From UHGV virus genome UHGV-1550197: DNA of 10,180 bases. One strand, given 5' to 3'. Source of the stretch: a virus. Within the stretch, counting starts at the first letter, position 1. Each line of letters starts with the position of its first letter. The notes beneath the pieces were generated by a model, which was not told where the DNA came from, did no database searches, and saw nothing but the letters and a program-made list of their open reading frames with translations. The position numbers and the translations under genes were made by a program. This document shows positions 1 through 10,180 of the stretch, piece after piece.

Positions 1-249
1 GCCACCAATATCAGAAATATTAATTTCGCGCGCAATTGAAGGGTCAATGTCAATTTCACGATTGAGTTTAGTGATAGCTAAAGTATCGCGCCCATTTACA
101 GTACGAAACTCTAAAGGACAAACCACATCAACGTAGTTTTTAATCGATTCGCTAGTAGGCTGCAAATGTGCAGGAAGGTCTTTAGGCGCCTTTGAGAAAA
201 CTACTTCGCAGAAGTTTTTACGAGTATCAAAATAAGTGGTCATAAACAT
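1..249 (-). CDS. hypothetical protein, N-terminal 83 codons only; gene continues beyond window start
   Basis: ATG at 247-249 (minus) preceded by GAGG 8 nt upstream; frame stays open to position 1 (hand translation MFMTTYFDTRKNFCEVVFSKAPKDLPAHLQ...). Absent from the supplied track because no stop codon lies inside the window. Product not recognised. Confidence 0.5.
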   Translation of the reverse strand, partial: MFMTTYFDTRKNFCEVVFSKAPKDLPAHLQPTSESIKNYVDVVCPLEFRTVNGRDTLAITKLNREIDIDPSIAREINISDIGG

Positions 250-262
250 AATAATTTCCTCA

Positions 263-292
263 ATAAGGGGCTTCAGCCCCTTATTTTATTTT
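263..292. terminator. GC-rich hairpin with T-tract; terminator-like on the plus strand, weaker on the minus strand
   Basis: Inverted repeat ATAAGGGGC / GCCCCTTAT (263-271 / 276-284) with loop TTCA, followed on the plus strand by TTTATTTT. On the minus strand it sits between the stop of the 121-aa ORF and the GAGG RBS of the next gene. Confidence 0.4.
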
Positions 293-656
293 AAATATCA
301 AATTCGTTAAGAACTACATCAAAGATTGCTTCAAGATGCTCAGGTTTAGTTCTGTTACTCAGAATATGACGAATCCAAGTTTTAACTAAGAGTTTACGAT
401 TAGCACCATTCCAGCAAGGATGAGTCCCTAAATCGCGTTGACGGAAATCATCATCCAGAGCGATTTTAAAGTTGGAACCTTCCATTGTGATTGAAACCGT
501 GATGCCATTTTCAAATCGCATATAAACGTAGTTAGGAGTCATATACTGTTCAATTTCGCATACTGATCCATTTTGATGTTTCCAAAGGCAGATGGTATCA
601 ATAGAACCTGCAATACCATTAGAAACATATTTACGTTCAAAGTTAATGTAGTTCAT
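291..656 (-). CDS. hypothetical protein (121 aa from ATG; track ORF begins 12 nt upstream at a TTG)
   Basis: Track ORF 291-668 starts at TTG (666-668); the first ATG is 654-656 with GGAG 6 nt upstream. Compact minus-strand operon context. Product not recognised. Confidence 0.6.
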   Translation of the reverse strand: MNYINFERKYVSNGIAGSIDTICLWKHQNGSVCEIEQYMTPNYVYMRFENGITVSITMEGSNFKIALDDDFRQRDLGTHPCWNGANRKLLVKTWIRHILSNRTKPEHLEAIFDVVLNEFDI

Positions 657-692
657 TTTATTCTCCAAGATGTTTAATTGCGGTACAGGTAT

Positions 693-720
693 ATAATATC
701 ATGTCCTGTACCAAAGTAAA
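693..720 (-). promoter_or_regulatory. candidate T4-early-type sigma70 promoter for the 121-aa ORF
   Basis: Minus strand reads GTTTACT (-35 TTTACT at 715-720), 16-nt spacer, TGA-TATTAT (-10 at 693-698). An inverted repeat GGTACAGG / CCTGTACC (705-712 / 682-689) brackets the -10. Confidence 0.4.
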
Positions 721-723
721 CAA

Positions 724-1056
724 TTATTTTACTACTTTCCAGTGCTGCATGTCAAGTTTACCAACTTTTTTCATCTTCTCAATTAAACGTTCTGCACGTT
801 GGCGAGCTGTAACATAATGCCATTCGTCTAATTCATTTTGTTCAATTTTTCCAACGATTACTGTATTCAATTCATAAATCCAACCAGTAAAGAAATTATG
901 AACTTGAATTGTAAAGGTGAAATCTGTTCCCATACCTTCTGTTGTTTCTACTTCAATAATATCACCTTCAACTGCCATTAAGAACCACATAGTTTCATTA
1001 TATTTACCATTGAAACATTTAGTTTTAACTGTAGCGTTCAGATTAATAGTTTTCAT
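724..1056 (-). CDS. hypothetical protein (110 aa)
   Basis: ATG at 1054-1056 with strong SD AAGGAG 7 nt upstream; a candidate promoter lies just upstream. Product not recognised. Confidence 0.65.
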   Translation of the reverse strand: MKTINLNATVKTKCFNGKYNETMWFLMAVEGDIIEVETTEGMGTDFTFTIQVHNFFTGWIYELNTVIVGKIEQNELDEWHYVTARQRAERLIEKMKKVGKLDMQHWKVVK

Positions 1057-1083
1057 TTTATTCTCCTTTGTTTGTGTAAGATA

Positions 1084-1112
1084 ATACTATCACAAAGGAA
1101 CCGTACTGTAAA
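1084..1112 (-). promoter_or_regulatory. candidate T4-early-type sigma70 promoter for the 110-aa ORF
   Basis: Minus strand reads GTTTACA (-35 TTTACA at 1107-1112), 17-nt spacer ending TGA, then TAGTAT (-10 at 1084-1089). It sits immediately downstream of the intrinsic terminator. Confidence 0.4.
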
Positions 1113-1132
1113 CAACTTTGTGCAATCTTTGG

Positions 1133-1162
1133 AAAATAAAAAAGGACTCCCGAAGGAGTCCT
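1133..1162 (-). terminator. rho-independent terminator (minus strand)
   Basis: Minus-strand RNA: stem GGACUCC / GGAGUCC (1155-1161 / 1144-1150), UUCG tetraloop (1151-1154), then UUUUUUAUUUU (1133-1143). Starts 5 nt after the stop of the 58-aa ORF. Confidence 0.8.
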
Positions 1163-1166
1163 CAAC

Positions 1167-1343
1167 TTATGCTTTCTGCTTACCAAAACGAGAAGCATCA
1201 TCTCGAAGAACCGCACGTGCTCGGCGCATGATCTTCTCAACAGTTTGATTGATACGAGAGTTCGACCCACGCTTGTAGCCAGCGCGTTTAGAATCACCAA
1301 CTTTCTTTTCAACTGCTTTCTTTGCTTTAGCTTGTTTTGCCAT
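1167..1343 (-). CDS. small highly basic protein (58 aa, Lys/Arg/Ala-rich), possibly nucleic-acid binding; function unknown
   Basis: Track ORF is 72 aa from ATG 1383-1385, but that ATG has no usable RBS (AGG only 2 nt upstream). The internal ATG at 1341-1343 is preceded by AAAGAGAA. Product MAKQAKAKKAVEKKVGDSKRAGYKRGSNSRINQTVEKIMRRARAVLRDDASRFGKQKA; followed by a strong terminator. Confidence 0.55.
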   Translation of the reverse strand: MAKQAKAKKAVEKKVGDSKRAGYKRGSNSRINQTVEKIMRRARAVLRDDASRFGKQKA

Positions 1344-1385
1344 TATAAATTCTCTTTTAAATGAAAATGCAGGACTTATTGGCAT

Positions 1386-1739
1386 TGCCTGCGCAAGCCC
1401 TCAAGGGGAACATAGGTTTTTGGATATTTAACGACCAGGATAACCATAAACCCGTCATCATACATTATAGCTCTTATCTGTTGCACACCGTTAGCTTAAA
1501 GGTTCCGGGTCCGATTACTCGAGGATAAGATATATACTGATGGATATATAGGCCTTGAGGCGTACTCCCGATTGGCCATCACCTCGGGGTAGCATGCACT
1601 TGCCGCTATAAAATAACATTCAAGAGGTACACCGTAAAACTGCCGGGGTCTTAAAACTATAATGATTCGCAAATCATTAATCAGACAGTTCGACGGCTCC
1701 TCGATTTAGCTCACACTAAGGCAGTGAATCTCCAATAAA
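1386..1739. other. ORF-free, GC-enriched (~44% against ~33-35% in flanking genes) element; candidate structured ncRNA, long mRNA leader or foreign insert
   Basis: No ORF of 60 aa or more in any frame (longest minus-strand ORFs I found by hand are about 30 codons). GC content by hand count is 37-50% per 60-nt line. Holds multiple copies of a palindromic CCTYRRGG-type 8-mer able to pair alternatively, plus local hairpins. No promoter motif found inside. Confidence 0.35.
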
Positions 1740-1988
1740 TTACTTCAATGTTACCACAAAGTGGCGAACTGCTTTTCGTGCAGCAGAAGCCAAAGGCTTA
1801 GCATATTTAAGTTCATCTTTTTCCTGAAGCTCAGCAGCTAATGCAGTTTGAGCAGGATTCAGATGTTTGAAATAACGCAGGATTTCAAGAGCTTCGGCTT
1901 CAACATCAATAGATGCGCCATAGTTTTCGTGACCATTATTCCATGCGTTTCGTTGCAGTTCAAGAGCGTGTTGTAATTGTTTAATCAT
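1740..1988 (-). CDS. rIII: rIII lysis-inhibition accessory protein (82 aa)
   Basis: Translation MIKQLQHALELQRNAWNNGHENYG... matches T4 rIII as I remember it, in length (82 aa) and sequence; position downstream of gene 31 as in T4. Confidence 0.9.
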   Translation of the reverse strand: MIKQLQHALELQRNAWNNGHENYGASIDVEAEALEILRYFKHLNPAQTALAAELQEKDELKYAKPLASAARKAVRHFVVTLK

Positions 1989-2128
1989 TTAAAAAATTCT
2001 CGTTAGAGATTAAAACTCGGTAGTCACGTTCTTCTGAATTTCATCTTCTTTCGACAGATCTCTCAGTTGTAGACTACCACATAGAATTGTTCGGTTAACT
2101 TATTATTCCGACACCCAATTCATATTAT

Positions 2129-2136
2129 TATTTATA
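2129..2136 (-). promoter_or_regulatory. candidate T4 late promoter core (TATAAATA) upstream of rIII
   Basis: Minus strand TATAAATA lies immediately after the gene 31 stop codon (2137-2139), about 140 nt upstream of the rIII ATG. A single 8-mer in an AT-rich genome, so weak on its own. Confidence 0.3.
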
Positions 2137-2472
2137 TCACTTATAAAGACACGGAATAGCTTTATAGTGACAAGTAACGAATTTTTGTTTAATTTCTTTT
2201 GGCTGCTTAAGACCCAGAGCTACAAAAGGATGCGGAACATTTCGAATTTGACCAACTGGAAGAGAAGTCAAATCACCAACTTCGCAAAAACCTTCAGGAA
2301 CATCAGGACCGACAGAGTGAACTACACACAGTTCAGGAACTTCACCTTGGACACGTTTACCAATAATAAGTCCTGATTCTGTAACTTCTTCATCACCAGC
2401 TTGTGCAGGTTCAGAAACTAAAATAACATATTCACCGACAGCACGAATTGGTAGCTGTTGTACTTCAGACAT
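2137..2472 (-). CDS. 31: gp31 co-chaperonin (GroES-like, required for major capsid protein folding), 111 aa
   Basis: Translation [48 protein letters not shown]... matches T4 gp31 as I remember it; RBS AAGGAAAAACG-ATG. Confidence 0.95.
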
Positions 2473-2502
2473 CGTTTTTCCTTTTTGTTAACAGATGAAT
2501 TA

Positions 2503-2529
2503 ATAATAACAAATAATTCTTAAAGCATT
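2503..2529 (-). promoter_or_regulatory. candidate MotA-dependent middle promoter for gene 31
   Basis: Minus strand: AAATGCTTTA (MotA-box core TGCTTTA at 2521-2527), 12-nt spacer, TGT-TATTAT (-10 at 2503-2508). Fits the T4 middle-promoter pattern (a/t)(a/t)TGCTT(t/c)A-N11-13-TAnnnT, about 30 nt upstream of the gene 31 ATG. Confidence 0.45.
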
Positions 2530-2837
2530 TATTTACCAATAAATTGGAGCAAATGCTCAACTTTCATACCATTAACGGAAATCAATTTGTCAATAGAAAA
2601 ACCTCGCCATGCACCAAGCTCAACATCAAATACTGGAATCATGTCAATAGATTCTTTCCGAGTAGATTCAGTCAATTTACCGGTTTGCATGGTTGGCATA
2701 AAGTCTGCATCACGAGTACCTTTCATAACACGAATAGTGCCATCAGACTTTTCAAAAACTACGTTTGAAACACCCATGGACAATTTAGTTTTCAAAATTT
2801 CACGAATTGCTACTTTTTGTTCAGTCGTCAGTTTCAT
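2529..2837 (-). CDS. hypothetical protein (102 aa), in the position of T4 31.1/31.2-type ORFs
   Basis: ATG 2835-2837 with AGGT SD; directly abuts the upstream ORF (its stop is at 2838-2840). Product not recognised. Confidence 0.65.
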   Translation of the reverse strand: MKLTTEQKVAIREILKTKLSMGVSNVVFEKSDGTIRVMKGTRDADFMPTMQTGKLTESTRKESIDMIPVFDVELGAWRGFSIDKLISVNGMKVEHLLQFIGK

Positions 2838-3074
2838 TTATTTACCTATTACAGTTTTAATATGAGTTGTTCCACGTTCTTTAAGGGTGGAAAGTAATTT
2901 TTGGCATTTTTCTAAATCAGATTTCCAACTATACGGTCTATCAATACTAGTCCAATCAGTTTTATAATACTGTTTCCATTTAGAGAAAAAATATTTCTTA
3001 TACTCTACAGCAAATGAGATGTTCTCGTTAGAATAAGAACTAATTGCTGTGAGCTTTACCAAACGAAATTTCAT
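2838..3074 (-). CDS. hypothetical protein (78 aa)
   Basis: ATG 3072-3074 overlaps the cd stop (TAATG, 1-nt overlap), indicating translational coupling. Product not recognised. Confidence 0.6.
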   Translation of the reverse strand: MKFRLVKLTAISSYSNENISFAVEYKKYFFSKWKQYYKTDWTSIDRPYSWKSDLEKCQKLLSTLKERGTTHIKTVIGK

Positions 3075-3655
3075 TATTCACCACAGAATTCGTTGATATT
3101 TTCCCAGTTTAACTTATTCAAGTTTTTCTTAGGAACATTAAACACTTCAATACCTGCATTTCGCAGAATATCATCCCAACCAGGTTTATTTTTGTCGTAT
3201 GTTTCACAATAAACTAGCTTTTTAATACCAGATTGAGCTATCGCTTTTGCGCAATCTGGACAAGGAGAAAGTGTTACATACATAGTAGCACCTTCAATAG
3301 AAGAACCATTTCGTGCAGCAAACAAAATTGCATTTAGTTCAGCATGAATTTCATTTTTAGATGACCATTCCGAGTGAGCACTACGATGTTCTTTCGCCAA
3401 AACAAAACGATCAGTTGAACCAAATGATACGCATTCAGGCTTATGACCTTGAATGATAGTGTGTTTAGGCTTATTCAACAACCAACCTTGCTCAGCAGCA
3501 TAATCACAACAGTTCACACCCCCTGCGGGGGAACCATTATACCCAGTAGAAATAATACGTCCATTCTTTTCAATTACTGCTCCTACCTTCCAGGAGCAAC
3601 ATTTTGATTCCTGTGATACTAAATATGCAATTTGAAGTACTGTACTCGCTTTCAT
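3074..3655 (-). CDS. cd: dCMP deaminase (deoxycytidylate deaminase), 193 aa
   Basis: Translation contains the cytidine/dCMP deaminase zinc motifs H-A-E (HAELNAI) and S-P-C-P-D-C and matches T4 Cd (193 aa) as I remember it. Confidence 0.95.
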   Translation of the reverse strand: MKASTVLQIAYLVSQESKCCSWKVGAVIEKNGRIISTGYNGSPAGGVNCCDYAAEQGWLLNKPKHTIIQGHKPECVSFGSTDRFVLAKEHRSAHSEWSSKNEIHAELNAILFAARNGSSIEGATMYVTLSPCPDCAKAIAQSGIKKLVYCETYDKNKPGWDDILRNAGIEVFNVPKKNLNKLNWENINEFCGE

Positions 3656-3990
3656 TTCATAATCACCAGATAAGCAGATTTAGCAGTTTCAACACGATAA
3701 ATTTCGTGACGAAGTTTAGTTATACTTTTAACAACAGAAGTAATTATATTCAGCCCATCTTTAAAGCGGTTTTTCTTATCAATAAAAACTGCGCCAGTCA
3801 TCTTTTTGTGAAGCTCAATTGGATACTTCGTCACAATAATAGCATCATACACAGAAGGATGAATACTATTCACCAGAGTATCATTCATTAAAGTTATTCT
3901 AATGAACTGTGCTGTTTCAGAATCAAGCGCTCTATGATCGCCAGTATCATTTTCAAGACAATTATCAATTATATCAGTTAAATTCATCAT
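3652..3990 (-). CDS. hypothetical protein (112 aa), cd.x-type small early ORF
   Basis: ATG 3988-3990; its stop overlaps the cd start (ATGA). Product not recognised. Confidence 0.65.
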   Translation of the reverse strand: MMNLTDIIDNCLENDTGDHRALDSETAQFIRITLMNDTLVNSIHPSVYDAIIVTKYPIELHKKMTGAVFIDKKNRFKDGLNIITSVVKSITKLRHEIYRVETAKSAYLVIMK

Positions 3991-4223
3991 AGTACGCCAT
4001 ACACCCTTTGTGCTTCAACTAATCCATCAAAATCTAGTTTAAGATGCGATATTTGATCGCCATCACCTGGATTCACAATTACTAATACTGAACGAGGAGT
4101 TTCAGTAATAACACGAACCGATGTTTCAGGAAATCGTTCAGAAACTTTATTTACTAATTCCTGTGCAAATAGTTTAACTTTTTCTTGGAATTCTTTAGCA
4201 GTAATTGGTTTTTCACTTAGCAT
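3987..4223 (-). CDS. hypothetical protein (78 aa)
   Basis: ATG 4221-4223; its stop overlaps the start of the downstream ORF (ATGA at 3987-3990). Product not recognised. Confidence 0.6.
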   Translation of the reverse strand: MLSEKPITAKEFQEKVKLFAQELVNKVSERFPETSVRVITETPRSVLVIVNPGDGDQISHLKLDFDGLVEAQRVYGVL

Positions 4224-4744
4224 GTTGATCCCAGCTCCTTACTTTCAACGTTTTTAACTAATTTGACAGAAACTAATTCAGCATCTTGAGTAATCATTAC
4301 CGGACCTTCTTCATACTCTTCAAGATATTCTAGAGCTTTCTTTTTAGCTTCTTCCTTCGTATCAGTTTGAGCATAGATATAAAACATACAACCAGTAATA
4401 CCTACTACTTTCCACTTAATTTCTTTATCAGTTTTAATTTCAAATTTACTGACGGAATCATCTTTTTGAACTTCTTCGAAAAAAGAATATTCTAACATAT
4501 AAGCAATTGAAAATAGCGGGCTAACTTTATAGGATTCACCCATTACATCAACAGCTTTATACCAACAATCATCAATTTCACGTTTAATGCTAATAACATT
4601 TTTCGCAGGATCTATTTTTACTTTAAATGAATTTTCCCCAATAAACTGGGCAATTCGTTTATTAGCCCCGCAAGTTTCATTAAAAATATCTTTATATCCA
4701 GCTTTAAAGCGATAAACCTTATCTTCTTCAAACCATTCGCTCAT
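4217..4744 (-). CDS. hypothetical protein (175 aa), acidic C-terminal half
   Basis: ATG 4742-4744 with GAGGA 7 nt upstream; it has its own candidate promoter in the 62-nt gap upstream. Product not recognised. Confidence 0.7.
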   Translation of the reverse strand: MSEWFEEDKVYRFKAGYKDIFNETCGANKRIAQFIGENSFKVKIDPAKNVISIKREIDDCWYKAVDVMGESYKVSPLFSIAYMLEYSFFEEVQKDDSVSKFEIKTDKEIKWKVVGITGCMFYIYAQTDTKEEAKKKALEYLEEYEEGPVMITQDAELVSVKLVKNVESKELGSTC

Positions 4745-4774
4745 TTCAATTTCCTCATTTGTTTTGGTAGAGCT

Positions 4775-4803
4775 ATAATATCACAACTCTACCGTAAAGT
4801 AAA
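4775..4803 (-). promoter_or_regulatory. candidate T4-early-type sigma70 promoter for the 175-aa ORF
   Basis: Minus strand GTTTACT (-35 TTTACT at 4798-4803), 17-nt spacer ending TGA, TATTAT (-10 at 4775-4780). Inverted repeat GGTAGAG / CTCTACC (4787-4793 / 4766-4772) brackets the -10. Confidence 0.4.
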
Positions 4804-4806
4804 CTA

Positions 4807-5082
4807 TTAAATTGCTTTGAATTCTGATGTCTGTGATTCAAAGCGAATGTCGCCTTTGATAACTAGCTCAGCATCAAGACCAAATACAACAATGATATGC
4901 GCGGAACCTGGATACAACGTAATGGCAATAGAATCCACCTGGTCTGGAAGCAAAGCGTTCAATACATGAGTCACTTGAGCGTGGATTCGAAGTTCAGCTG
5001 CGTTATCAAGTTTTTCAAACATATTATTAGCGATAATTTGGCTAAACACTACTTCTACGATTTTAGAGTAAGTCGGAAACAT
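4807..5082 (-). CDS. hypothetical protein (91 aa from ATG; track ORF begins at an upstream TTG)
   Basis: Track start at 5110-5112 is TTG. The internal ATG at 5080-5082 has GAGG 5 nt upstream and sits 2 nt after the stop of the upstream 66-aa ORF. Product not recognised. Confidence 0.55.
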   Translation of the reverse strand: MFPTYSKIVEVVFSQIIANNMFEKLDNAAELRIHAQVTHVLNALLPDQVDSIAITLYPGSAHIIVVFGLDAELVIKGDIRFESQTSEFKAI

Positions 5083-5084
5083 AT

Positions 5085-5285
5085 TTACCTCACATAATTT
5101 TCTTCGAGCCAATCAATAACATCCAAAGCGTTATCAAAAGTTGCGCCATCTACTTTGTCTTCTGTTTCATAATCAAGAACATCTAGGCCTACTCTTCCGT
5201 CAACAATAGGCCATAGACAAAATAGATATTTCTTTTCTTTTTCAATTTTATCACAAAGACGATAAATCTTTTCTAGGTTATTCAT
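5085..5285 (-). CDS. hypothetical protein (66 aa), acidic
   Basis: ATG 5283-5285, 2 nt after the stop of the upstream ORF; weak RBS. Supported mainly by tight operon packing. Confidence 0.5.
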   Translation of the reverse strand: MNNLEKIYRLCDKIEKEKKYLFCLWPIVDGRVGLDVLDYETEDKVDGATFDNALDVIDWLEENYVR

Positions 5286-5474
5286 ACGTTTTCCATGGTA
5301 AAGGCAGTTTAGTTTTCTTTACTACTAGTTCAACATCAGGATTCTTTTCTCTTAATTTAAGGCATTCCTCCCATGCTCTATTTTCACTAGTAAATACACA
5401 AAATTGCCCATTACTAGTACCAACTAAACCGCTATTTACAATAACAATAGCCCAAGTTTCATGGTGCCAAGCCA

Positions 5475-5475
<1 letters not shown>
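5278..5475 (-). CDS. hypothetical protein (65 aa from the ATG overlapping the pseT stop; alternative start at 5505 gives 75 aa)
   Basis: ATG 5473-5475 overlaps the pseT stop (TAATG) and has GGGAG 7 nt upstream; the longer track ORF would start 30 nt inside pseT. Confidence 0.5.
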
Positions 5476-6675
<1,200 letters not shown>

Positions 6676-6679
<4 letters not shown>

Positions 6680-6906
6680 TTATTTTTCTCAACTAATGAT
6701 TGAATATAATCATGCAGGTCTTTAGATGCTTTGCCCCACTTATTTTGGTATTCATTTTTAAGATTAGCACGTGATTGAGCTAATAAAACATCATTAGTTG
6801 GAGGTAAAGATTCTAATCGTTGAATCTGGCGACCATAAATCATTGCAGCCATCTCGGATTCATAAATCAATTCTTTGAGATGTTCAAATTGATGCCATGA
6901 AATCAT
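6676..6906 (-). CDS. hypothetical protein (76 aa; 78 aa if started at ATG 6910-6912)
   Basis: The ATG at 6904-6906 has AAGAGGA 9 nt upstream and overlaps the o-spanin stop (ATGA); the upstream ATG has only 3-nt spacing. Product not recognised. Confidence 0.55.
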
Positions 6907-7202
6907 TTGCATTTATCCTCTTTTAGCTCTTGACGATAATAACATATCATAGTTTTTTGGTCATGTACATATCGTTTTACATCATTAAGCCAAATACGAA
7001 ATTCCTGGGAATCTTCAAATGGCATACCGACCCAAGCTTTACCATCAATAACTTTAACTTGCCAAGATAGTTTAGCTTCATCATATGACTTTATCTGCAC
7101 AGGCCAATTAGGATGAACTGTTTCTTTCTTTACTTCTAGAGGCTTTGTCGAACAACCAACTAGAAGACCAATAGATAATATTACTGCTGATAGTTTAATC
7201 AT
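6903..7202 (-). CDS. pseT.2: outer-membrane spanin-like lipoprotein (o-spanin), 99 aa
   Basis: N-terminal signal peptide with lipobox L-V-G-C (MIKLSAVILSIGLLVGCSTKP...); immediately downstream of, and 4 nt overlapping, the i-spanin-like gene. In T4 the spanin pair is pseT.3/pseT.2 in this position. Confidence 0.7.
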   Translation of the reverse strand: MIKLSAVILSIGLLVGCSTKPLEVKKETVHPNWPVQIKSYDEAKLSWQVKVIDGKAWVGMPFEDSQEFRIWLNDVKRYVHDQKTMICYYRQELKEDKCK

Positions 7203-7552
7203 TTAGAAAGGTCCTGGATGTCTTCTGCGAACTTGTTGAAGGAGTTGTTGATTTGTTTTTCAACCAATCCTGGCTTATGAGCCACCACATCCGCCTTCTT
7301 TGCGTCTTTGCGCAGCTTTTCATTTTCACGCTCAATAGCAGCAATTGCCTCACGATTTTTATTATTCATCGCATCAATATAATTATACTGAATTCGCAAA
7401 TTATTTAATGCTAAGGCGTTTTCATTGGCTGTTTTTGTAATTTCAGTAACTGATGTTTCTAATCTTTCTACCTTATTTTTTAAAATAATAGATGTTCCGC
7501 CAAATGCTATTACAAGTAATAGCAATCCAGCTGTAAAATTACTTACATGCAT
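7199..7552 (-). CDS. pseT.3: inner-membrane spanin-like protein (i-spanin), 117 aa
   Basis: Single N-terminal transmembrane segment (FTAGLLLLVIAFGGTSIIL) followed by a charged, likely coiled-coil domain; 117 aa; precedes the lipoprotein gene. Matches T4 PseT.3 architecture. Confidence 0.7.
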   Translation of the reverse strand: MHVSNFTAGLLLLVIAFGGTSIILKNKVERLETSVTEITKTANENALALNNLRIQYNYIDAMNNKNREAIAAIERENEKLRKDAKKADVVAHKPGLVEKQINNSFNKFAEDIQDLSK

Positions 7553-8046
7553 AAAGTTTTAATAACCTCTATAATATCGTCTTGAGAAAGACCGTTAATT
7601 AAAATATGATGTTCAGCTGGAGATTTAGAAATTTTAAAGCATGCCTCAACATCTTCTGCCATATCCGATGCGCTACGATTTGGATTACTAATTCCAAGAC
7701 GATGTTTTCCCGTTAAAGGATTAACGATGATATAGCATTTACAGCTATTGATATGAACATTAGGTTGAGTCTGATTAATGAACACTTCACAATCATACTT
7801 AGCGAGTTGATTTTCTAAAAAGACTTTCATCTCTTCAACCGCATCAGGAAGCATATCACGGGCTTGCTCAAGACGACGATTTCGATATTCTTTAATGGTC
7901 GTTTTCCGCTTGACTTGCTTAGCTAAATCTTTCTTAAGATCGGTGATATATCCAACTCGACGATTTCCTTTGAATACAGAAATCCCATCTGTAGTATCAC
8001 CGTATGCTTCAACGACCATTTCAGTAGTAATAAGCTGCAAATCCAT
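7543..8046 (-). CDS. alc: Alc (blocks host transcription elongation on cytosine DNA), 167 aa
   Basis: Translation (M)MDLQLITTEMVVEAYGDTTDGISVFKGNRRVGYITDL... matches T4 Alc as I remember it. The second ATG (8044-8046) has GAGGA at 7-nt spacing; the track ORF starts one codon earlier. Confidence 0.9.
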   Translation of the reverse strand: MDLQLITTEMVVEAYGDTTDGISVFKGNRRVGYITDLKKDLAKQVKRKTTIKEYRNRRLEQARDMLPDAVEEMKVFLENQLAKYDCEVFINQTQPNVHINSCKCYIIVNPLTGKHRLGISNPNRSASDMAEDVEACFKISKSPAEHHILINGLSQDDIIEVIKTLCM

Positions 8047-8050
8047 CATA

Positions 8051-8107
8051 AAGTCCTCATGTTATGTCAGTAAGACTACTATAACACAACATGAGGGACT
8101 TGTAAAC
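8051..8107 (-). promoter_or_regulatory. candidate early promoter for alc inside a 13-bp inverted repeat that covers the alc RBS
   Basis: Minus strand GTTTACA (-35 TTTACA at 8101-8106), 17-nt spacer ending TGT, TATAGT (-10 at 8078-8083). Inverted repeat AAGTCC(C)TCATGTT (8088-8101 against 8051-8063); the 3' arm contains the GAGGA SD. Confidence 0.45.
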
Positions 8108-8110
8108 AGC

Positions 8111-9698
<1,588 letters not shown>

Positions 9699-9728
9699 AA
9701 TAAAATGGGCCTTGCGGCCCACTCCTTA
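9699..9728 (-). promoter_or_regulatory. GNRA-tetraloop hairpin between the nrdB stop and the denA start: terminator-like and/or split ribosome-binding site
   Basis: Minus strand: UAA-GGAG-U-GGGCC-GCAA-GGCCC-AUUUUAUU-AUG. AAGGAG lies 5' of the hairpin and the denA AUG 8 nt 3' of it; with the hairpin folded the effective SD-AUG spacing is about 9 nt. Confidence 0.45.
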
Positions 9729-10132
9729 AAAGTATTTTTTAAAACTCATCATAACTTTATCATCAACATCATTATCAATCTGTGCAACAAGGTAAGATGA
9801 CAATTCTACTTCTTGTGGCGCAGATTGAACATTATCAGAATTAAGATATTCACGAATCCAAGGATATGGATGTTTAACCGGAGCATCGGTAATTGGGCAT
9901 GGAAGACCACACTGCTTCATACGAGATACAGTTAAGTAATCAATAAAGCTCCACATGCTATTTGTATTTAATCCAGGAACATCTCCATCTTTAAATAAAT
10001 GAACTGCCCAATCTTTTTCTTGGCGGTTAACTTCCATGAAAATATCAACTGCTTCTTGTTCACACTCTTGAGCAATTTTAACCCATTCATCGCCATCAGT
10101 ACCGGATTGAAGCTGACGAATAATATATTGGG
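9726..10132 (-). CDS. nrdB: ribonucleotide reductase small subunit, C-terminal part only (5' end cut off by the adapter / contig end)
   Basis: Open minus-strand frame from the adapter junction to the stop at 9726-9728 (...AQYIIRQLQSGTDGDEWVKIAQECEQEAVDIFMEVNRQEKDW...SFKKYF). Assigned mainly by T4 synteny (nrdB-denA-rnlA) and an acidic C-terminal tail; I do not recall the T4 NrdB sequence well enough for a direct match. Confidence 0.65.
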
Positions 10133-10180
10133 CTGTCTCTTATACACATCTCCGAGCCCACGAGACGTAGAGGAATCTCG
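10133..10180. other. Illumina Nextera (Tn5 mosaic-end) adapter read-through: sequencing artefact, not phage sequence
   Basis: Exact string CTGTCTCTTATACACATCT-CCGAGCCCACGAGAC, then the 8-nt index GTAGAGGA, then ATCTCG (start of the P7 flow-cell sequence ATCTCGTATGCC...). Confidence 0.95.

Follow-up and report, generated by a model that had tools for sequence, protein, structure and literature searches.

A Nextera read-through adapter forms the last 48 nucleotides of a Tequatrovirus contig that ends within nrdB

The stretch of viral DNA analysed here (the window, 10,180 nt) breaks off inside a ribonucleotide reductase gene, nrdB, and closes with 48 nt that read CTGTCTCTTATACACATCT-CCGAGCCCACGAGAC-GTAGAGGA-ATCTCG on the plus strand (10133–10180), which raises the question of whether the truncated gene and its tail belong to the phage or to the way in which its DNA was sequenced and assembled. 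There is very little doubt that these 48 bases are technical contamination, derived from read-through in a Nextera N712 library and stuck on the end of a low-coverage contig, and not biology.

The tail was compared with a template composed of the Tn5 mosaic end (ME), CCGAGCCCACGAGAC, an 8-nt index and ATCTCGTATGCCGTCTTCTGCTTG. All of its bases (48/48) corresponded to the Nextera read-1 read-through adapter, and the fixed positions of the template were matched without a single mismatch (40/40). The parts of the adapter are listed in Table 1 together with the neighbouring coding features. Read on the minus strand, the window end gives CGAGAT-TCCTCTAC-GTCTCGTGGGCTCGG-AGATGTGTATAAGAGACAG, in which the 3' portion of the Nextera i7 index primer precedes the transposon end, and the presence of CCGAGCCCACGAGAC identifies the source as read 1 entering the i7 adapter. 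The preliminary description of this DNA, made from its letters alone, had taken the last 48 nt for an exact copy of this adapter in four parts (ME, CCGAGCCCACGAGAC, index and the start of P7); both the match and the anatomy held, with no such match expected by chance, and the index proved to be the catalogued N712, whose primer is tabulated as CAAGCAGAAGACGGCATACGAGAT-TCCTCTAC-... with the index read GTAGAGGA (PMC7589761, Appendix B). The screen against known Nextera adapter sequences that had been proposed at the same time was run and returned a single exact site, at 10133–10180. Allowing up to three mismatches on both strands still left only one template site in the window, none of 200 dinucleotide-preserving shuffles matched the template (0/200), and the naive chance expectation for the match is 1.7e-20 per window. 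The GC content is 0.52 in the 48-nt tail vs 0.356 in the remaining 10,132 bases. Elsewhere in the window, the opposite end included, the adapter-piece screen detected no Nextera i5/i7, TruSeq or P5 piece, and the sole other resemblance to P7, a 10-nt match at 9918, is due to chance.

Table 1. Coordinates of the adapter parts and of the adjoining coding features at the 3' end of the window.
Feature	Position	Strand	Basis
Tn5 mosaic end (ME), CTGTCTCTTATACACATCT	10133..10151	+	19/19 exact; first 19 nt of the Nextera adapter on short-insert read-through
CCGAGCCCACGAGAC, reverse complement of the i7-side Nextera primer tail GTCTCGTGGGCTCGG	10152..10166	+	15/15 exact
i7 sample index GTAGAGGA, Nextera N712, 8 nt	10167..10174	+	Index table, PMC7589761 Appendix B
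ATCTCG, first 6 of 24 nt of the P7 flow-cell sequence ATCTCGTATGCCGTCTTCTGCTTG	10175..10180	+	Exact; the contig stops there
In-frame TAA supplied by the mosaic end, closing the truncated ORF on its 5' side	10140..10142 (read 10142–10140)	-	Minus-strand translation ...CV*ETAQYIIRQLQ...
Genuine 3' part of nrdB (class Ia ribonucleotide reductase beta subunit)	9726..10132	-	98–99.5% nucleotide identity to annotated Tequatrovirus nrdB
Spurious 'complete' 103-aa ORF, first ATG (10037) after the adapter stop	9726..10037	-	ORF listing and public gene call (144–455 of L003); no Pfam match

The window proved to be the whole of the public contig ena:ERZ652393:NODE_196_length_10180_cov_6.32267 (L003), which was reached by a look-up of the 103-aa open reading frame (ORF) adjoining the adapter and whose reverse complement was identical to the window over 10,180/10,180 bases. 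NODE_196 is a SPAdes-style contig (k-mer coverage 6.3), and as the window comprises all of it, the adapter lies at a genuine contig end (the 3' end of the contig), pointing outward. The opposite end, at window position 1, carries no adapter, and contamination is not universal in this assembly. The contig is absent from IMG/VR, where the exact genome–adapter junction string gave no match, and a literature search on ERZ652393 found no paper mentioning the accession.

Bases 1–10132 formed a single collinear alignment with complete Tequatrovirus (T4-like) genomes, at 97.2–97.6% identity over their full length, the identity to relatives rising to 99.3–99.5% in the last 1.3 kb. According to public gene calls and Pfam, they carry the minus-strand T4 early region in the order 30.7/30.8, rIII, gp31 co-chaperonin, dCMP deaminase, polynucleotide kinase, Alc, spanins, RNA ligase 1, endonuclease II (GIY-YIG) and nrdB. 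Whole-window matches stopped at 10130–10132. When compared base by base, the two closest genomes, PV295200 (L001) and Shigella phage SHFML-11 (L002, KX130861), were identical to the window until 10132, with the first mismatch at 10133, and beyond this point they ran on natively with nrdB (excerpts TGCCTTTAAGATGAAG... and TGCCTTTAAGATGAAGCTGC..., vs CTGTCTCTTATACACATCT... in the window), the identity being at random level from 10133. The junction 10132/10133 is therefore exact to the base. Some megablast alignments that reached 10142, i.e. 10 nt into the adapter, were rejected as gapped chance extensions, as the native sequence differs from 10133 onwards. Two oddities in the metadata of related records were noted in passing: Escherichia phage HP3 (L008, NC_041919.1), a 168 kb genome with T4-like collinearity at 97.8%, is filed under 'Rosemountvirus', and OR584013.1 (H8), of 165 kb and with 98.2% identity to the present Tequatrovirus region, bears the name 'Pseudomonas phage PsgM02F' and the host entry Pseudomonas coronafaciens.

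The part of nrdB retained in the contig, with its stop codon at 9726–9728 (minus strand), amounts to 407 nt, that is the last 135 of 392 codons plus 2 nt, or 407/503 nt of exon 2 and 407/1179 nt of the coding sequence. Pfam assigned no family to the 134-aa C-terminal NrdB fragment, which is too short for Ribonuc_red_sm, and because of this its identity as NrdB rests on nucleotide homology to annotated genes; the exon-1 product of one relative (L004) matched PF00268. The gene lies in two pieces in the nearest relatives, separated by a 1090-nt insert with a 269-aa homing endonuclease ORF, and MZ501113 annotates the interrupted nrdB as a joined CDS, whereas nrdB of HP3 is uninterrupted (1179 nt) and other relatives likewise lack the insert. 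A BLAST comparison of HP3 nrdB with L001 placed exon 2 of the latter at 3427–3929 (503 nt) and exon 1 at 5020–5695 (676 nt), with the insert of 1090 nt at 3930–5019; equivalents of the insert are present in L002 and L009. As window coordinates equal the L001 locus plus 6299, exon 2 would span 9726–10228 and the insert would start at 10229, so that 96 nt lie between the last native base of the contig and the intron insertion site. The insert was thus defined by comparison with the intronless HP3 nrdB and the joined CDS of MZ501113, a scan of L001 3400–5800 at the Rfam gathering threshold having reported no group I intron. We call it an intron on the strength of the record annotation and of the T4/RB3 nrdB, which we take to contain a group I intron with I-TevIII. 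The phage almost certainly carries a full nrdB, and, judging from its nearest relatives, the gene is probably interrupted 96 nt further on by an intron bearing a homing endonuclease. The earlier view that the truncation of nrdB is artefactual and not biological was borne out, as relatives with 99.5% identity hold the rest of the gene beyond the junction. Just past the other end of the gene, a GC-rich hairpin (GGGCC-TTGC-GGCCC, window 9703–9725) was observed in the gap (3-nt-to-27-nt) that separates the nrdB stop from the denA start, a region in which several relatives annotate a terminator.

When a Nextera fragment is shorter than the read, read 1 continues into the ME, the i7 primer site, the index and P7. 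The order of the parts in the window is this read-through order, and the tail would thus come from a read 1 whose insert ended at 10132/10133. The following course of events may be proposed. The library would have been prepared by Nextera (Tn5) tagmentation with the i7 index N712, and at least one fragment with a Tn5 cut at 10132/10133 would have been shorter than the read length, so that read 1 left the phage insert for the mosaic end and passed through the i7 primer site and the index into P7. Standard trimmers remove Nextera read-through using CTGTCTCTTATACACATCT; the reads were presumably not, or not fully, adapter-trimmed. A SPAdes-type assembler could then have extended the dead end of a low-coverage Tequatrovirus contig with the adapter read, the contig ending where the read ended, in which case the truncation of nrdB would simply be the contig end. 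We infer the read-through mechanism, the untrimmed reads and a collapse of coverage at 10132.

As to why the contig breaks at this point, a Lander–Waterman-type estimate (k-mer coverage 6.32, k = 55) gave contigs of ~4, 6, 8.5 and 17 kb for reads of 100, 125, 150 and 250 nt, respectively. A contig of 10 kb that ends where coverage lapses is thus to be expected, and the k-mer coverage of 6.3 alone is enough to explain the break. Assemblers such as SPAdes normally clip a short low-coverage tip if a native path competes with it, and the survival of the adapter tip thus argues for a true dead end. The coverage gap would accordingly have been primary, and the adapter a decoration of the break. The adapter may, alternatively, itself have broken the contig, native reads across 10132 having existed and the untrimmed adapter path having stopped the extension, as has been proposed for MGnify genomes. 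Trimming of adapter-bearing ends lets contigs merge, which implies that adapters do break assemblies, but only ~0.8% of contigs merged after trimming (PMC11536531) and a gap is expected every few kb at a k-mer coverage of 6.3x; we consider this course unlikely, though it deserves to be weighed.

It is improbable that the contig ended at a branch of the assembly graph caused by strain heterogeneity around the nrdB intron, be it presence and absence of the intron or homing-associated co-conversion of the exon, in a mixed T4-like population, a reading under which the adapter would still be contamination. The native sequence does end only 96 nt from the intron insertion site, intron-containing (99.5%) and intronless (97.8%) relatives both exist, and another public contig (L006) also ends abnormally in exon 2, within ~50 nt of the break. 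However, the break lies 96 nt away from the splice junction and not at it, and as exon 2 is 98% identical up to the junction between intron-plus and intron-minus genomes, a branch would be expected nearer to the junction; furthermore, the low coverage suffices without any branch, and, to judge from the behaviour of SPAdes, the adapter tip would normally have been clipped in the presence of a competing native path. That the contig end lies near the intron site because of co-existing intron-plus and intron-minus T4-like phages or of a homing-driven co-conversion tract, and not because of a random coverage gap, is highly doubtful; if it were true, adapter-tipped ends near homing-endonuclease sites could be cheap markers of intron polymorphism in metagenomes. 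L006 (ena:ERZ27280904:k141_130562), a T4-like contig ending in nrdB exon 2 ~50 nt from the window break, carries at 1–47 a 47-nt GC-rich foreign head (TAACCGCATGCAGCCGCGAGGGCGCTGGGGCGATGATGGG...) that matched neither phage nor any screened adapter piece and is probably a chimeric contig end.

The occurrence of the same string in other collections bears on the reading of the tail as a library contaminant. At least 120 IMG/VR contigs carried the 34-nt core (ME plus CCGAGCCCACGAGAC) at an end, and among the 124 core occurrences listed for this collection, 123 were terminal (at most 42 nt from the stored end) and pointed outward. The index slot in the listed IMG/VR contigs varied among known Nextera indexes between invariant flanks, with GTAGAGGA in 10 of them, and the bases following the index matched P7 in 98/102 listed cases. 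In the GenBank phage collection, the 48-mer matched 43 of 50,697 records from unrelated hosts (Bacillus, Streptococcus, Listeria, Acinetobacter, Pseudomonas, Staphylococcus, Escherichia and others), mostly at record ends, and the full-length matches differed from the query by ~4 bases, consistent with the index. No match to the adapter 48-mer was found in 5,426 complete E. coli genomes (28 Gb). A sequence that stays constant between unrelated taxa except for its index slot, that lies at sequence ends and that finished host genomes lack must be a contaminant and not biology. A natural Tn5/IS50-type transposon end inserted in nrdB, which would make the tail genuine, is effectively refuted and has a probability close to nil, for although Tn5 ends are the historical origin of the first 19 nt and the junction lies inside a gene, as that of a transposon insertion would, the 19-mer is the synthetic hyperactive mosaic end and neither the natural outside end nor the inside end (which we take to be CTGACTCTTATACACAAGT and CTGTCTCTTGATCAGATCT, respectively, both differing from it), the next 29 nt are Illumina primer, catalogued index and P7, the phage records with the string belong to unrelated taxa, carry it mostly at their ends and vary only in the index, and the 5,426 complete E. 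coli genomes lack it.

Several further observations were made on adapter-bearing records. Among the 80 listed adapter-bearing IMG/VR contigs L010–L089, 53 came from one dataset, 3300045988, and the contamination thus depends strongly on the batch. Past the 34-nt core, the tail, 14 nt long in the window, clustered at 13–15 nt in 41 of the 124 listed IMG/VR occurrences. The only internal core among these 124 was located at 3701–3734 of L020 (IMGVR_UViG_3300010234_000504, 190,684 nt), where it is followed by TAGATTCC GACTCATAAATTC... and not by index and P7, pointing to a chimeric join within this large viral contig. Internal Nextera cores were also detected in further phage records, e.g. at MK327937.1:110018, MK327945.1:123962, MK373781.1:146327, MH973725.1:6673, MT584805.1:107548 and MH000603.1:33833, some of them under annotated hypothetical proteins; these are probably mis-joins or adapter insertions. 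In MK327946.1 (Escherichia phage vB_EcoM_G4507, a Tequatrovirus 'complete genome'), an internal full-length Nextera adapter (L130 401–~520; record 76726–76759 plus flanks) consists of the ME, CCGAGCCCACGAGAC, the index CGAGGCTG and the whole of P7, after which come poly(A) runs and another, partial ME. This adapter lies within the baseplate hub/tail lysozyme gene, which is annotated as two CDSs as a consequence.

The effect of the tail on gene calling differed from what the preliminary description had expected. There, the nrdB frame was thought to run on through the adapter, and any ORF or protein predicted over 10133–10180 to be chimeric, but the minus-strand reading in the nrdB frame (...TGT GTA TAA GAG ACA G/CC CAA TAT..., the slash marking the junction) meets the in-frame TAA after only 2 codons and 1 base of adapter have been fused to NrdB, and no public gene call crosses 10133–10180. 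Just one longer frame stays open across the adapter, an off-frame stretch of 70 codons on the minus strand. As the TAA closes the ORF upstream, a gene caller sees no frame that continues past the contig end, and the actual call is the mis-started and falsely complete 103-aa ORF, from which 32 genuine nrdB codons (10038–10132) are lost and whose partial status is not flagged. Read in reverse, the mosaic end holds a TAA in one frame (AGATGTG-TAT-AAG... / ...GTA-TAA-GAG...), and adapter tips can therefore disguise partial genes, without any warning, as complete short ORFs, which then pass into protein databases; the present contig is an example. Two metagenomic T4-like contigs have the same 103-aa ORF among their gene calls owing to in-frame stops upstream of it in nrdB exon 2, one at ~1610–1620 of L004 (CAATAGATT where others have CAATATATT) and one at ~2820–2830 of L005 (GTGTTAACAAG where others have GTGTGAACAAG); these stops may reflect errors of sequencing or assembly, or else the genes may truly be pseudogenes.

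The terminal adapter is a well-known kind of assembly artefact and no biological feature, and its significance is one of data hygiene only. Positions 10133–10180 should be masked, nrdB should be annotated as 5'-partial (9726–10132, minus strand) and the 103-aa 'complete' protein should be discarded. Other contigs of ERZ652393 deserve a Nextera screen and not a TruSeq screen alone, and the earlier advice that other contig ends be checked appears reasonable in view of the behaviour of the adapter in other collections and of published experience (PMC11536531). Phage genomes deposited as 'complete' also contain this adapter, which in one of them splits a baseplate gene.

In comparison with known systems, the tail of the window is the same, in sequence and in the order of its parts, as the i7-side read-through of Nextera (Tn5 tagmentation) libraries and differs from it in nothing, P7 being represented by 6/24 nt because the contig ends. 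The T4-type interrupted nrdB (T4/RB3) finds its counterpart in the nearest relatives of the contig, whose nrdB is likewise split by an insert with a homing endonuclease, whereas the contig itself ends 96 nt before the site and its truncation is unrelated to splicing. Adapter contamination has been reported to be concentrated at the contig extremities of public microbial (MGnify/ENA) assemblies (Moeller et al., 2024, BMC Genomics 25:1033, PMC11536531), and the present case is similar in that a forward adapter lies at a contig end in an ENA/MGnify-type metagenome assembly and is associated with a broken gene. In contrast to the window, with its Nextera sequence, the screen in that study employed the TruSeq universal 12-mer AGATCGGAAGAG (Moeller et al., 2024); as the adapter-piece screen detected no TruSeq 13-mer in the window, a TruSeq-only screen would miss this contig.
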